The notes: a model not told the origin generated them from the letters alone. A DNA stretch of 64,000 nucleotides from Candidatus Nanohaloarchaea archaeon (GCA_042218325.1 JBDGRE010000010.1:1-64000); one strand, 5' to 3'. Numbered from the stretch's first letter, positions 3,079-7,564 are shown. Program-made: numbers and translations.

Positions 3079-3089
3079 GCTCATATTAT

Positions 3090-3827
3090 CTATTCCTCCT
3101 CCGCCTGGCTCTCAAGCCAGTCGATAAACGTAGTACGGTTTTTGTTCTTCTTCTCGGCCTCGAGAGCGGCGCTGTAATCCGGACTTTCGAGCTCTTGGAG
3201 CTGGTCCTTGGCGTCGCTGATTGTGCCGGAGACGATGTCGTCGTAGTCAGCCGTGGCTGCTTCGGCGGTTCCGTCCTCGCTGTCTTCTTCCTCTGCTTCA
3301 GTCTCCTCCTCTTCTACTTCTTCCGTCTCGATTTCCTCGGAGGCTTCTCCGCCCTGCATCTGCTGCATCATCTCGCCTTCCTCTTCTTCCTCGAGGGCTT
3401 CTTCCATCTCTTCTTCCTCGACGCCGATCTCTTCGACGTCCGATATCTCGTATTTCTCCAGCCTGCGCTCGTCCTCGATGTTGAGCGCCTGCACCTGCAG
3501 GTTGGAAGGCCTTAGAGCTTTCTCTCTCATGGTCCCGTCGACCTTCTCGTGCTCGATACCGTCGACGTAAACTTTCTCGGAGTCCCTGTCTATGTTGCTT
3601 ACGATCCCCGAGACACCGGAGTCGTCGCCGCGCATCACCTCGACGCGGTCCCCGGTCCTCAGTGAGATCGAGCGGGTGCCGAGCTCTTCTCTCAGCTCGG
3701 GCGAAACGTTCGCGGATAAAAGCTTATCTTTCACGTGCTGCGGAGCGTTATCCCTGTACTTCCTCTGCTTCGAAGGCTTCGTGGAAGAGTTCCAGTGCCT
3801 GCTCCAGTTATCAGTATCCTGCGTCAT
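3090..3827 (-). CDS. rpl24: 50S ribosomal protein L24 (uL24) with long acidic linker and extra C-terminal domain
   Basis: SKQRKYRDNAP, GDRVEVMRGD, RPSNL; about 120 aa longer than a typical uL24. Confidence 0.95.
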   Translation of the reverse strand: MTQDTDNWSRHWNSSTKPSKQRKYRDNAPQHVKDKLLSANVSPELREELGTRSISLRTGDRVEVMRGDDSGVSGIVSNIDRDSEKVYVDGIEHEKVDGTMREKALRPSNLQVQALNIEDERRLEKYEISDVEEIGVEEEEMEEALEEEEEGEMMQQMQGGEASEEIETEEVEEEETEAEEEDSEDGTAEAATADYDDIVSGTISDAKDQLQELESPDYSAALEAEKKNKNRTTFIDWLESQAEEE

Positions 3828-3831
3828 TATT

Positions 3832-4230
3832 TCAAACCACCTGCGATGCGATCTTGCCGATAGGGGAGAAGCGCTGGACGACCTCCTTTGCGATAGGCCC
3901 TCTGGTAACGCTTCCCTTCGGCAGCATGTTCTCCTCGACCAGTACAGCGGCGTTATCCTCGAACGCGATCCTCATGCCGTTCGGTCTCTGGTACTCCTTG
4001 GCCTGCCGAACGACGACGGCGTCGAACACCTGGTGCTTCACTTCCTGGTCTCCTTTCAGGACTTTTACAGTTACGATGTCGCCGACGCCAGCCGTTTCCC
4101 GGCGGCCCCTGCGACCTTTAGTATGTTTTACTCCGATAATCTCCAGCTTCTTCGCGCCGGAGTTGTCAGCGCACGTAAGCGATGCGCCCTTGTCGAGCGT
4201 CCGTGTGATGTTCGCTCCTACAGGTTTCAC
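3832..4230 (-). CDS. rpl14: 50S ribosomal protein L14 (uL14)
   Basis: CADNSGAK, FEDNAAVLV, GPIAKEV. Confidence 0.97.
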   Translation of the reverse strand: MKPVGANITRTLDKGASLTCADNSGAKKLEIIGVKHTKGRRGRRETAGVGDIVTVKVLKGDQEVKHQVFDAVVVRQAKEYQRPNGMRIAFEDNAAVLVEENMLPKGSVTRGPIAKEVVQRFSPIGKIASQVV

Positions 4231-4547
4231 TCAGGGTTCACCTCTACCACTACGGCGCTTTTCGTCTTGGAAATCGGCCGCGTCTCGACGACCTTCACCT
4301 GGTCTCCTTTTTTGATGTCGATACAGCCTGGTACATGCACTGAGATCTTCGTGTTACGCCGCTCGTAACGCTCGTACTTCGGAACGCTTTCCGAGTACTC
4401 CCATCGAACGGTCGCGGACTTCTCCATCTTCGTGGACTGTACCTCTCCGACGAAAGTGCTGCCTCTCACAGGTAGCTCTCCGTGGAAGGGACAGTTCTTG
4501 TCCTCGCATTCCTGTTCCGGTGCCTCGACTGCAAGTCCTGGTGACAT
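4227..4547 (-). CDS. rps17: 30S ribosomal protein S17 (uS17)
   Basis: CEDKNCPFHG, KYERYERR, ETRPISKTK; ATG at 4547 with TTTAAA about 30 nt upstream. Confidence 0.95.
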   Translation of the reverse strand: MSPGLAVEAPEQECEDKNCPFHGELPVRGSTFVGEVQSTKMEKSATVRWEYSESVPKYERYERRNTKISVHVPGCIDIKKGDQVKVVETRPISKTKSAVVVEVNPE

Positions 4548-4611
4548 CGTGTATTGATTCCTCGCGACGAACTCTTTTAAACCGACTGTAGCCAAGGCTT
4601 AACTCTTACGC

Positions 4612-4790
4612 GGACACGCGGGTTTTAGTATAGACTTGCGTGCCGCTCAGAGCCTGTACGAAAGATGTTTACTCCCTGCCGGGAGGTATGAACTTTCGTA
4701 CATGCTCTCCAGAGTATCGTTCTCGGGCCCGACACCGGGACAAATGGCGTCGAACCGTCGCCCGACTCCAGGCGGTCAAAGCTCGTATCC
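4612..4790 (-). ncRNA. Candidate structured ncRNA (~179 nt, three-way junction), identity unknown
   Basis: Ends pair (GGAUACG/CGUGUCC); two long internal arms; TTTTAAAG box at 4815-4808, 25 nt upstream. Confidence 0.6.
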
Positions 4791-4839
4791 CAAGAAGTAA
4801 AAACAAACTTTAAAACGGGTGCTGCCAACTTCTGTCCTT

Positions 4840-5448
4840 TCAACCTTCCAGTTTTTCGTCTTCGGGTTCTCCGGCCTGCCGTGAAAGCTCGTTTACCCTG
4901 TTCGCCACTTCTGCCGGGTCGGGGACGTACTCCAGTTCAGCGCTGGCGGAATGGATGCCGGTGTCGATGTCAACAGTTCCCACGTCGAACAGGTTGCCGA
5001 TGAAACCTTTGCTGTATTCCGCATCGCGGATGTCCTTGAGAAGGGTCGAGTCGACTTTCTCACCCATGAACTTCCTGTACTTGATTATCCTTTCATCAGT
5101 TCCGGAGTACTGGACAGTCATCGCGAACACGGCGAGACTGCTCAGAACCATGTAGAGGATGGGTAGTAGGAAACCCACTGCTGCGCCGAGGATCGCTGTG
5201 TTCCTGCTCTGTTCTATCAGCAAGAAGGCGCCTGCAGCCGTGAGGGGCGCTACGAAAATCCCGAACAGCAACCCTACCGGGCTCTTGACGATTCCAGAGG
5301 CCGCCATCGCAAGCTTGTCAGGATTTACAGTCCACTGTATCTCCTCATCGCCATGGACGCTGTTTTCCAGCCCTTCGGAAGCTTCCGATGTCTGCATACG
5401 TTCCAGCTCTCCGGAGAAGAATTCGTCTTTTGATAGCTTAATAACCAT
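4840..5448 (-). CDS. Membrane protein with bacterial-type PH (bPH_2-like) domain
   Basis: Two hydrophobic segments, then Y..TDERII..KFMG...GNLFDVGTVDIDT pattern. Confidence 0.7.
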   Translation of the reverse strand: MVIKLSKDEFFSGELERMQTSEASEGLENSVHGDEEIQWTVNPDKLAMAASGIVKSPVGLLFGIFVAPLTAAGAFLLIEQSRNTAILGAAVGFLLPILYMVLSSLAVFAMTVQYSGTDERIIKYRKFMGEKVDSTLLKDIRDAEYSKGFIGNLFDVGTVDIDTGIHSASAELEYVPDPAEVANRVNELSRQAGEPEDEKLEG

Positions 5449-5926
5449 GGTCTGGGCCGGTCTCTATAGAGTAGTCCCGGATTTCCTCTCCGTCTTCATC
5501 GAAGTAAAATTCGGCTCTCAGTCTCTTGCCATCCAGCACGTCCGGCAGCCAGTAGGGGTCGTCCGTCCACATCTGGTCGTATGGTATATCGTCTACATCG
5601 AACCATTCCGGCCTCACCTCCTCTGTCTCCTGATGTTCTCCCTGATGGTCGTCGGAGAGGAATACGTGGACTCTCTGGAACGGGTCGCCGCCGAAGAAGA
5701 ACTCCAGTTCGGCCACCTTCTCGGGTTCTACCGGTACCGTCTCTGTCTCTTCGCGGTGTTCCCGGATAGCGGCCTCCCGGATTGTTTCGCCGTCCTCGAC
5801 CTTTCATCCCGGGCCGTTGTACTTCCCTGCGCCGTGCCCCTGTTTCTTCTCTATGAGAAGGATCTCGTCGCCTTCCAGGACGTAAGAGAGTGTCACCTCT
5901 GTCCAGTCCCCGGTCATATCTTCCAT
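5438..5926 (-). pseudogene. NUDT1/MutT-like 8-oxo-dGTPase interrupted by in-frame TGA at 5804-5806
   Basis: MEDMTGDWTEVTLSYVLEGDEILLIEKKQGHGAGKYNGPG*KVEDGETIREAAIREHREE...IPYDQMWTDDPYWLP. Confidence 0.8.
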
Positions 5927-5951
5927 AAGGCGCTGAAATCTAAAGTATCTG

Positions 5952-6236
5952 TCAGTCGGCGTACTCCCACTTGCCGGGGAGCTTCATCCCGGCGCGTTCC
6001 TCGGGCCGCTTCGCGATGAGCTCGCCGTCGACTTTCACTTTTCCTCCCGAGGGCAGGGTGAATCTGAAGATAGCGGATTTTTTCTCGACCCGCCTGTCTT
6101 CTATCCTGAGCATCGAACGGGTCTCGTCGAGCACCTCTCCCGAGATGCCTACCTGGCCCTCGTCCTCCGCCTCTACGACCTCGCATTCGAGGCCTATGAG
6201 TTCGTGCTTCGGAAGGTTTTCGGGTGTTATAGGCAT
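5952..6236 (-). CDS. rnp1: RNase P protein component 1 (Rpp29/Pop4)
   Basis: HELIGL..V, G.VLDETR, VDGELIAKRPEER. Confidence 0.92.
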   Translation of the reverse strand: MPITPENLPKHELIGLECEVVEAEDEGQVGISGEVLDETRSMLRIEDRRVEKKSAIFRFTLPSGGKVKVDGELIAKRPEERAGMKLPGKWEYAD

Positions 6237-6239
6237 CTT

Positions 6240-6497
6240 TCAGTGCTTGAAGACCTGCTTTTTTTCTTCGAGGAGTTCTAAAGTTTCCTGGTGCATCGCT
6301 TCCGGGTCCTGGCCGTGCAGGAACTCTCCGACCGCATCTATAGCGGCGAAGGCCTCTTCTCTTTTCTGCCGCGGGACCTGGGTGTAGGGACGGTCTGGAA
6401 CTTTCTCCAGGAGCTGCTCGGCCCGGTCATACGGCTGGGGGCTTTGCTCCAGGCCCCTTACGTACTGTGTCTTCAGGTATGGTGGCATCAAGCTCAA
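6240..6497 (-). CDS. Hypothetical protein
   Basis: 85-aa ORF filling the SUI1-Rpp29 gap in the operon direction. Confidence 0.55.
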   Translation of the reverse strand: MSLMPPYLKTQYVRGLEQSPQPYDRAEQLLEKVPDRPYTQVPRQKREEAFAAIDAVGEFLHGQDPEAMHQETLELLEEKKQVFKH

Positions 6498-6531
6498 GAA
6501 GGCACGTAAAAGTTATTACATGTTCGCCATC

Positions 6532-6840
6532 TCAGGCGTTGATTTCTATCTGTGACTCATCGAATCCTTCCTCTACGAGTACATCCTTGATGCGCCGTGT
6601 GTGGTCGCCCTGGAGCTGTATCTGGCCGTTCTTCGCGGTCCCCCCGCATGCCAGCTTCGACTTGAGGGTGGACGCGAGTTCACTGAGGTCGACGTCGTCG
6701 CCGAGGCCTTCTACAACGGTCATCTCCTTGCCGAACGAGCGGGTGTCGAGCTTGACCTCGATCTTCTGCTCGCCCTTGGCGATAGAATCACATACGCAAA
6801 GGTCCTCGGGCATCCCGCACTTTGGACATGTCTCTGCCAT
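6532..6840 (-). CDS. Translation initiation factor aIF1 (SUI1)
   Basis: CPKCGMPEDLCVC, LKSKLACGGT, IQLQGDH. Confidence 0.95.
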   Translation of the reverse strand: MAETCPKCGMPEDLCVCDSIAKGEQKIEVKLDTRSFGKEMTVVEGLGDDVDLSELASTLKSKLACGGTAKNGQIQLQGDHTRRIKDVLVEEGFDESQIEINA

Positions 6841-6845
6841 TACAG

Positions 6846-7043
6846 TCAGTTACGCTCGTTAAGAACAGTTTTGATGCGTGCGATGGTTTTCTTCATCTCT
6901 TTTATGCGCCCGGGGTTGTCGGCGAATCCTCCGACCTCTATCTGTCCTCTCTCCTCTACGAGTTCCTTCTGGAGGTCGGTAAGCTGCTCCTTTAGCTCGC
7001 TGTCGTCCATGTCGCGTGCGTCTTCTGCCGTCAGTATCGCCAT
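6846..7043 (-). CDS. rpl29: 50S ribosomal protein L29 (uL29)
   Basis: NPGRIKEMKKTIARIKT. Confidence 0.95.
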   Translation of the reverse strand: MAILTAEDARDMDDSELKEQLTDLQKELVEERGQIEVGGFADNPGRIKEMKKTIARIKTVLNERN

Positions 7044-7081
7044 CTCAGTATGTCACCTTACTCTTCGACCGGTTTAAAGCT

Positions 7082-7564
7082 TTACTCGCGGTTCTCCAGC
7101 CATTCCTTGAAGGTTTTCCGGTCCTTGTTATCTTTCTCTGCCTCAAGCGCCGCGTCCCAGTCAGGGTTCTCGAGCTCTTGGAGCTGGTCCTTGGCGCCGC
7201 TGATGGTGCCCGAGACGATTTCCTCGTAATCAGCTTCCGCTGTCTCTGCTTCTGTCTCTTCCTCCTCTGTGTCGGTTTCCGGCCCCTCTACCTCGGTCTC
7301 TTCTTCAACGGTTTCTTCTTCCAGTTCCTCTTCGTATTCGAACTCTTCCGTTATCTTGAGCTCGGCGCGGGAGGTGTTTTTTCCGAAGCCGGTGTAGATA
7401 CCCTCGACCTCGATAGAGTTTTCGTCTAGGTTGTTCTCGGCCGCTATCCTTGATACCACGTCTTCTCTGCTCGGTGTCGGGCTGTCCTCGTGCGTGAGAA
7501 CCACCTCTGCCTCGAACCTGTCGAGCAGCGGGTTCTCCCGTACCGAAGTGATTTCAGCTTCCAT
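7082..7564 (-). CDS. rps24e: 30S ribosomal protein S24e with acidic linker and extra C-terminal domain
   Basis: RENPLLDR, H...TPSR, TGFG; follows Spt4. Confidence 0.93.
   Translation of the reverse strand: MEAEITSVRENPLLDRFEAEVVLTHEDSPTPSREDVVSRIAAENNLDENSIEVEGIYTGFGKNTSRAELKITEEFEYEEELEEETVEEETEVEGPETDTEEEETEAETAEADYEEIVSGTISGAKDQLQELENPDWDAALEAEKDNKDRKTFKEWLENRE

Follow-up and report, generated by a model that had tools for sequence, protein, structure and literature searches.

Few proteins are as conserved as those of the ribosome; extensions of them that are specific to a lineage are common and usually differ from one protein to another. The ribosomal-protein gene cluster at the beginning of a 64,000-nucleotide stretch of DNA from Candidatus Nanohaloarchaea archaeon (GCA_042218325.1, JBDGRE010000010.1:1-64000; this whole stretch is hereafter the window, with positions counted from its first letter) raises the question of why a large-subunit protein, uL24, and a small-subunit protein, eS24, end in the same domain. 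A preliminary description of the window presented this C-terminal module as a feature of the uL24/eS24 pair. It is indeed carried by both subunits but is not peculiar to these two proteins: in the same genome, it is also found in eL31, uS3 and three non-ribosomal proteins. It is unusual for a single folded domain to be found, across a phylum, on four to five ribosomal proteins from the two subunits as well as on RNA polymerase, GINS, ATPases and a membrane anchor, and the module appears to be undescribed so far.

A module shared by uL24 and eS24

The identity of the two host proteins is clear from family-level matches. The uL24 protein matches PF16906 over residues 15-124 (66 bits, cut-off 28.8; E-value 4e-18), the KOW motif (25 bits, cut-off 22.3) and NCBIfam TIGR01080 (99.5 bits, cut-off 47.65), and its position fits the conserved gene order uS17-uL14-uL24-eS4-uL5 (Pfam assignments); the eS24 protein matches PF01282, Ribosomal_S24e, over residues 4-85 (52.6 bits, cut-off 24.5). 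Beyond its canonical core, each protein continues through a linker into the module:

3090-3827, minus strand: uL24 gene, 245 amino acids including the tail, stop codon at 3090-3092 (open reading frame (ORF); Pfam Ribosomal_L26/KOW; TIGR01080)
3456-3827, minus strand: uL24 canonical core, residues 1-124 (Pfam and NCBIfam matches span residues 15-124)
3261-3455, minus strand: uL24 Glu-rich linker, residues 125-189, 31 Glu in 65 residues (composition)
3093-3260, minus strand: uL24 C-terminal module, residues 190-245 (profile match; AlphaFold2 model of its sequence)
7082-7564, minus strand: eS24 gene, 160 amino acids including the tail, upstream of uL29 and SUI1 and downstream of Spt4 and RpoE' (ORF; Pfam Ribosomal_S24e)
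7310-7564, minus strand: eS24 canonical core, residues 1-85 (Pfam S24e match, residues 4-85)
7244-7309, minus strand: eS24 Glu/Thr-rich linker, residues 86-107, 12 Glu in 22 residues (composition)
7085-7243, minus strand: eS24 C-terminal module, residues 108-160 (profile match)
3187-3213, unstranded: 27-nucleotide stretch identical to 7170-7196, coding for helix 2 of the module (DNA comparison)
7170-7196, unstranded: 27-nucleotide stretch identical to 3187-3213 (DNA comparison)

The preliminary description had reported a common tail of ~50 amino acids starting at window positions 3251 and 7234, which correspond to uL24 residue 193 and eS24 residue 111, Glu-rich linkers preceding it, an exact 27-nucleotide DNA match (3187-3213 = 7170-7196), and a small helical fold on a tether. 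All these points hold. Both quoted sequences are present and the coordinates are right; the module comprises ~53 residues, with 36 of 47 residues identical between the two proteins; the linkers have the Glu content listed above; the DNA match is real; and the predicted structure consists of four helices (see below). The BLASTP alignment of uL24 with eS24 is confined to the tails (E-value 4e-13), the DNA sequences of which are about 75-80% identical. The shared 27-mer occurs at these two sites only in the 1.07-Mb genome. An exact run of at least 27 nucleotides arose in 0.16% of 20,000 simulations in which the proteins were fixed and codons were drawn according to the genome usage, a frequency that pertains to an identity singled out post hoc. 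Codon sharing between the two modules is not elevated overall (19 of 35, against the expected 15.4 +/- 2.7; P 0.13). The module is strongly acidic, with 15-16 Asp and Glu (D+E) against 5-7 Lys and Arg (K+R) residues and a net charge of about -9 to -10.

Predicted fold and conservation

AlphaFold2, run on an alignment of 36 copies, yields a compact model (predicted local distance difference test (pLDDT) score 89.6, predicted template modeling (pTM) score 0.70) with helices at module positions 6-11, 14-23, 29-38 and 43-55. In these 36 copies, which come from many genomes, the mean column identity is 54%; E36, R42 and T44 are invariant, and Y6, V10, T13, K18, D28, L33, A35 and K40 are nearly so. 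Given this model, we are confident that the module is a real domain, a small four-helix bundle predicted to fold autonomously. For P0127, a natural two-module protein modeled on a three-row alignment, AlphaFold2 gives the four-helix pattern in each half and leaves the packing undecided (pLDDT 66, pTM 0.37). Homodimer prediction from the module alignment scored 0.00, where the mark is 0.42, which amounts to no answer and weighs neither way.

Comparison with known families and structures produced few matches. Isolated modules hit no Pfam family at E-values up to 10 and no NCBIfam family in local copies of these databases, and the related two-module proteins had no Pfam match at the same limit. 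Among the small helical DNA- and RNA-binding motifs, such as SAP, HeH/LEM, Rho_N and the like, none matched in Pfam and none was among the top folds; a remote relation is still possible. Foldseek found no solved structure in the PDB at E-values of 1e-3 or lower. An exhaustive fold search with VIA went no higher than Z 6.5, for the Ctf4 C-terminal helical domain, followed by IFT80 at 6.2 and INTS3 at 6.0, all below the noise bar for helical proteins. In PHROGs, nothing scored better than an E-value of 0.0076, or better than 0.04 for the window's own modules. An iterated profile from the module's own genome drifted onto two archaeal histones in the region of the loop and the last helix, which we treated as drift; the match to the genome's own histones is weak (hhalign probability 24%, 39 columns, 18% identity). 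The nearest neighbors in the ESM Atlas are clusters of the uncharacterized domain DUF8129 (PF26450), with a cosine of 0.79 and a template modeling score of 0.63-0.64 over 52-53 residues, and an actinobacterial DUF5872 cluster; these matches fall below the bar of the tool and are leads only. As atlas leads go, the DUF8129 clusters, from Methanobacteriota-labelled archaea and viruses, resemble the module in being fused to other proteins, for example, the ETF alpha subunit. A full-text literature search for 'DUF8129' returned no papers.

Two candidate assignments were rejected. NCBIfam NF033649 (lipid droplet-associated protein Rv1109c type) scored 21.1 bits with eS24 and its linker and 13.5 bits with the module alone, against a cut-off of 110; this sub-threshold match, to the C-terminus of the family, was the only hit. 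Ubiquitin, or the beta-grasp fold more generally, does not fit an all-helical model without strands, and the match to a single ubiquitin has an E-value of ~0.3-0.6. Searches with the module profile, of PDB sequences among others, return polyubiquitin, with E-values down to 3e-20, in the region of ubiquitin residues 20-59; these values do not reflect homology because weak per-repeat matches are summed, and anyone building a hidden Markov model (HMM) of the module should expect polyubiquitin false positives.

Carriers across the Nanohaloarchaeota

The genome that includes the window (G000; Nanohaloarchaeota, 1.07 Mb in 35 contigs, 96% complete, metagenome-type assembly) encodes eight copies of the module in seven proteins, as detected by profile search. 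Apart from uL24 and eS24, the ribosomal carriers are:

C8:20670-21146: eL31, C-terminal module (profile search, own genome)
C1:94906-96012: uS3, C-terminal module (profile search, own genome)

The non-ribosomal carriers are a 299-amino acid protein with a winged helix and a coiled coil, where the module is C-terminal; a 213-amino acid protein with one hydrophobic span (C31:52935-53576), where it is N-terminal and presumably faces the cytoplasm; and a 563-amino acid acidic protein with two modules at the N-terminus. The non-module part of the membrane carrier is found in 43 of the 49 genomes of the window's family and, with that query, hardly outside it. Separately, a weak second relative of this part lies on the window's own contig, just past the window (C2:69686-69952; E-value 2e-4).

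The preliminary description had called for an HMM scan of this genome and other archaea. Such scans show the module on further ribosomal and non-ribosomal carriers throughout the phylum: it is present in 40 of the 41 nearest relatives and in 69 of 70 Nanohaloarchaeota genomes, with 1-12 matches each, the sole exception being G028 (family f5, 93% complete). In a set of 5.8 billion proteins, 173 longer proteins matched with E-values of 1e-3 or lower; the best 120 of these include 48 uS3, 27 eS24, 21 uL24, 15 eL31 and 9 proteins without a Pfam family. In a representative set of 1.84 billion, 478 proteins matched at the same threshold, and on re-scanning 146 representatives, 7, of which six are polyubiquitins, lacked an individually significant module. 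Among the 150 representatives listed, the carriers assigned by Pfam include uL22, RNA polymerase subunit A'' (Rpb1_5), a KaiC-like ATPase, a MoxR AAA ATPase, C2H2 zinc-finger proteins and GINS51 (Gins51_C), in which the module sits between the two domains; dozens of proteins of 190-256 amino acids with the module at residues ~3-56 are of the membrane-anchored type. Tandem arrays of 4-5 modules are present in P0121 and P0122, and in some lineages uL24, uL22 and RNA polymerase A'' have two modules each (P0125, P0126, P0129).

Outside this set, we scanned viral contigs and one genome per species with a divergent alignment of two-module proteins. These scans recovered other nanohaloarchaeal lineages (among them Ca. 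Asbonarchaeaceae and Ca. Nanohalalkaliarchaeum) and three proteins of ~100 amino acids with the module at the C-terminus, from a high-G+C viral contig, an Acidimicrobiia genome and an Ilumatobacter genome (E-values scaled to 1.84 billion sequences):

L137:2839-3144: viral contig protein, E-value 1.8e-5
L155:1393-1692: Acidimicrobiia protein, E-value 1.3e-4
L157:1372-1683: Ilumatobacter protein, E-value 0.63

The first two of these matches are significant. A large ORF (324, 430 and 288 amino acids, respectively) lies just upstream of each; we read these ORFs as putative capsid genes. Microbacterium phages supply further matches to the viral contig protein, annotated as 'hypothetical proteins' (13 records representing 7 phages; E-values 5e-4 to 8e-4). 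These actinobacterial (pro)phage proteins resemble the module, including the conserved motif of helix 3, loop and helix 4, but they differ in the carriers, in the non-halophile hosts and in the N-terminal part, which is Pro/Asp-rich rather than a Glu-rich linker.

No description of the module was found in full-text literature searches, which do not cover subscription journals and supplements. PMC7203096 makes no mention of such tails, and a preprint notes only that indels at either terminus of universal proteins in nanohaloarchaea are hard to interpret (bioRxiv 10.64898/2026.06.17.729505). Tails of this kind inflate and confuse the ribosomal-protein alignments used in DPANN phylogeny.

Evolution of the module copies

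The high identity between the uL24 and eS24 modules had originally been attributed to recent duplication or gene conversion. A quick maximum-likelihood tree of 112 modules from 111 ribosomal proteins, which is based on 53 columns and has low resolution, clusters the modules by carrier: 18 label changes were counted, against 54.6 in shuffles, and none of the 200 shuffles was as low. No carrier forms one clade, and the branches with good support require a minimum of 2-3 changes for each carrier. In this tree, the uL24 module of the window falls with the uL24 modules of other genomes, apart from the window's own eS24 module. Recent duplication as the origin of the pair is therefore rejected. Conversion stands in part, as local concerted evolution within the genus. 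Among the 11 genomes with both modules, the identity between uL24 and eS24 within a genome exceeds the between-genome cross-carrier mean in 9 and is highest in the window's genome (0.73) and its congener G001 (0.71). In G001, a derived two-residue change is common to the uL24, eS24 and uS3 copies and is not found in the eL31, membrane and winged helix-turn-helix copies. The high identity of the pair is mostly family-wide conservation (54% mean column identity, with grouping mainly by carrier); we read the pattern as strong purifying selection, to which short-tract conversion, or the replacement of one module by another, occasionally adds within the genus for the copies on uL24, eS24 and uS3.

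A putative docking module

The predicted fold, the fusions, the distribution and the conservation described above are observations; that the module binds anything, and what it would bind, is inferred. The reading we tentatively favor, at somewhat short of an even chance, is that the tail is a tethered protein-docking module that would capture a common partner or partner modules. The ~53-residue four-helix bundle sits at the tip of a Glu-rich linker that is long and probably disordered. Several identical 'hooks' on flexible acidic lines might capture one common partner, or one another, and so make the partner locally more concentrated near ribosomes, RNA polymerase, the replisome and the membrane. 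Flexible acidic stalk proteins recruit translation factors on the same principle. We take uL24, eL31 and uL22 to surround the polypeptide exit and uS3 and eS24 to face the solvent on the small subunit; with this solvent-exposed placement, the modules would project into the cytoplasm.

Promiscuity, terminal linkers, multivalency, co-variation within a genome and a conserved domain are together the usual signature of protein-protein docking modules; most of the many unrelated carriers belong to large cytoplasmic machines, and a membrane anchor is among them as well. The conserved membrane-anchored carrier of the window's family and the significant relatives outside the phylum also count in favor of docking. 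The phylum-wide presence of the module (69 of 70 genomes) argues that it is under selection, and the co-variation in G001 is what copies serving one partner, or copies homogenized by conversion, would be expected to show. Because the module is found on many non-ribosomal proteins, contacts between ribosomes alone are unlikely to account fully for its role. If the module indeed serves for docking, it points to a partner or a network with links to translation, transcription and replication in obligate symbionts whose genomes measure ~1 Mb, and it would provide a handle for the pull-down of nanohaloarchaeal ribosomes together with their partners.

Several observations weigh against this interpretation. 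A structural role (in the hydrophobic core, as helix N-caps or in a salt bridge) could explain most of the conserved residues, and the overall composition is strongly acidic, as given above (15-16 D+E against 5-7 K+R). The VIA scores are ordinary for helical bundles, so the fold offers no functional lead. Furthermore, the module is not constant on a given carrier. Among the 48 uL24 genes examined out of 65 matches (the 30 best loci and 18 from other families), 30 have the module: 21/30 in the window's family, 2/10 in family f3, 7/7 in f4 and 0/1 in f5; one of the 9 module-less genes in the window's family adjoins a contig end. For eS24 (49 of 66 matches examined), all 29 complete genes in the window's family have the module and one further gene runs off its contig; in the other families, only 1 of 19 has it, and the rest have a short or long acidic tail instead. 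Module-less uL24 proteins still have an acidic tail, of 13-125 residues with a D+E fraction of about 0.5-0.6. The persistence of the acidic tail without the module suggests that the tail may be the main functional element. Across the phylum, acidic tails are near-universal, but the module is facultative on any one ribosomal protein; the capping of both uL24 and eS24 is a feature of part of one family, whereas the module itself is phylum-wide and moves between carriers.

Two further features of the tails are recorded here. In the module-less genome G028 (loci L083 and L129), the uL24 tail, alone among those examined, is Lys-rich and the eS24 tail is of mixed charge, with D+E fractions of 0.20 and 0.31; this genome may lie outside the acidic, salt-in proteome of the other families. 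Module-less uL24 tails often end alike, in Lys/Glu, Gly, Asp/Glu and then Asn/Lys/Gln/Ser (L053, L055, L060, L062, L063, L072-L075, L078, L082), and this short terminal motif may be an alternative terminal signal.

Alternative explanations

The main competitor of docking, which we regard as possible although doubtful, is passive halophilic adaptation: the acidic tail would do the work in a salt-in cytoplasm (for example, by shielding charge in cis or solubilizing basic ribosomal proteins, or as an entropic bristle in molar KCl), and the module, having no specific partner, would merely cap the tail and stabilize it, for example, against proteolysis of the disordered end. Nearly all lineages of the phylum have acidic tails on uL24 and eS24, whether or not these end in the module, which is dispensable on any one carrier, and the sole module-less genome has the non-acidic tails described above, so the module tracks the lineages with acidic proteomes. 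However, residues invariant over the whole phylum are needless for a mere cap, and a cap would not be expected at the N-termini of membrane proteins, inside GINS51, or in tandem arrays of up to 5 copies; nor does it account for the occurrence of the module in actinobacterial (pro)phage proteins of non-halophiles.

More adventurous than docking to a partner, and in our judgment rather unlikely, is a sticker-and-spacer network specific to the phylum, in which the module would act as the 'sticker' on acidic spacers and modules would bind each other or a single hub protein. The stickers would mark ribosomes (four per ribosome here), RNA polymerase, GINS, the KaiC-like and MoxR ATPases, scaffolds with 2-5 copies and a membrane anchor. 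If true, such a network might physically organize the information-processing machinery of these ultra-small cells or tether it to the membrane, and tailed phages with the same module would gain a handle on such networks.

Nucleic-acid binding, whereby the Lys/Arg loop between helices 3 and 4 would touch rRNA, mRNA or DNA and provide ribosomal proteins, RNA polymerase A'', GINS, zinc-finger and winged helix-turn-helix proteins with additional nucleic-acid contacts, is unlikely as well, and we would not give it much weight. Most of the identifiable carriers act on nucleic acids, the nearly invariant K40 and the invariant R42 are located in this loop in an otherwise acidic proteome, and the iterated own-genome profile did drift onto two archaeal histones. 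Set against this are the strongly negative net charge and the polyanionic linker, the profile-profile probability of only 24% for the histones, the lack of any nucleic-acid-binding Pfam family at E-values up to 10, and the membrane-anchored, KaiC-like and MoxR carriers, which do not fit.

The preliminary description had speculated that the modules of the two subunits bind each other and bridge 30S to 50S, or pair ribosomes during dormancy between hosts. We consider this very improbable. Carriers are indeed present on both subunits, the linkers, at 22-124 residues, are long enough in principle, and the copies co-vary within a genome. Yet the same module is present on many non-ribosomal proteins, and the ribosomal carriers change from family to family (in f4, uL24 has the module in 7/7 and eS24 in 0/7), so that a fixed geometry of small-to-large subunit pairing is not conserved; nothing ties the module to dormancy.

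Finally, the chance that either fusion, or each of them, stems from a chimeric contig or from reading through into a small gene of its own is negligible: the window does come from a 35-contig metagenome-type assembly, and the run that fully covers the region may be the source of the window itself, but both reading frames run on from core to module without a stop, the junction of the uL24 core and linker (3417-3654) is spanned with no differences by a contig of a second study, another contig covers uL29 through the eS24 module (6754-7236) with 1 difference, the uL24 and eS24 fusions recur in dozens of other assemblies, some of them single-contig (G001, G011, G020), and 21 uL24 and 27 eS24 clusters with the module come from several data sources among the 120 matches listed. 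Contigs of the possible source run also span both genes without a difference; because that run may be the window's own source, they are not independent support. The misassembly that the preliminary description wished to see excluded is thus effectively refuted by the same fusions in many independent assemblies.

Apart from this, contigs of two runs from one study (X2 and X5; depth 49 and 41) join position 3079 to 3831 with 7 other letters between, skipping exactly the uL24 gene; the shorter side of the join is just 30-33 letters. The join may reflect a related organism or similar intergenic sequence rather than a real deletion. No RNA run was found to cover the region.

Comparison with known ribosomal systems

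The closest functional analogy to the proposed docking is the acidic stalk of the ribosome (P-type in archaea and eukaryotes, bL12 in bacteria), in which small terminal elements on flexible acidic linkers recruit soluble partners. The two systems have in common several copies of one small terminal element, flexible acidic linkers and a place on the ribosome surface. They differ in that the module is another, four-helix domain without detectable similarity to the stalk element and is attached to four unrelated ribosomal proteins of both subunits as well as to non-ribosomal proteins. The genome also encodes an ordinary stalk protein (C1:8451-8765). In eukaryotes, ubiquitin, a beta-grasp protein, is fused N-terminally to eS31 and eL40 and is cleaved off. 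There too, the same small domain is fused to one small-subunit and one large-subunit ribosomal protein, but the nanohaloarchaeal module is C-terminal, is attached through a long linker and is predicted to be all-helical.

Genomic context

The first 8.4 kb of the window is a ribosomal-protein gene cluster on the minus strand (ORF calls and Pfam). By Pfam assignment, its order is eL19, eL32, uL6, uS8, uS14, uL5, eS4, uL24, uL14 and uS17, followed beyond uS17 by a bPH_2-domain protein, a 92-amino acid ORF, RNase P p29, an 85-amino acid ORF, SUI1, uL29, eS24, Spt4 and RpoE'. The eS24 gene (7082-7564) is directly upstream of uL29 (6846-7043), the position that uS3 usually occupies in archaeal clusters; the module-bearing uS3 of this genome is encoded on a different contig (C1:94906-96012). 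Between uS17 and RNase P p29 (window 4840-5716, minus strand), the protein with the bacterial-PH domain bPH_2, which has 202 amino acids and hydrophobic stretches, is accompanied by the 92-amino acid ORF, which has no family assignment.

The Glu-rich linker of uL24 contains a Met/Gln-rich motif followed by Gly-Gly (window 3348-3374, minus strand; residues 152-160). This motif recurs in the window's family regardless of whether the uL24 tail ends in the module, including 9/9 module-less f1 tails, and the vicinity of the tunnel exit may thus have another conserved element besides the module.

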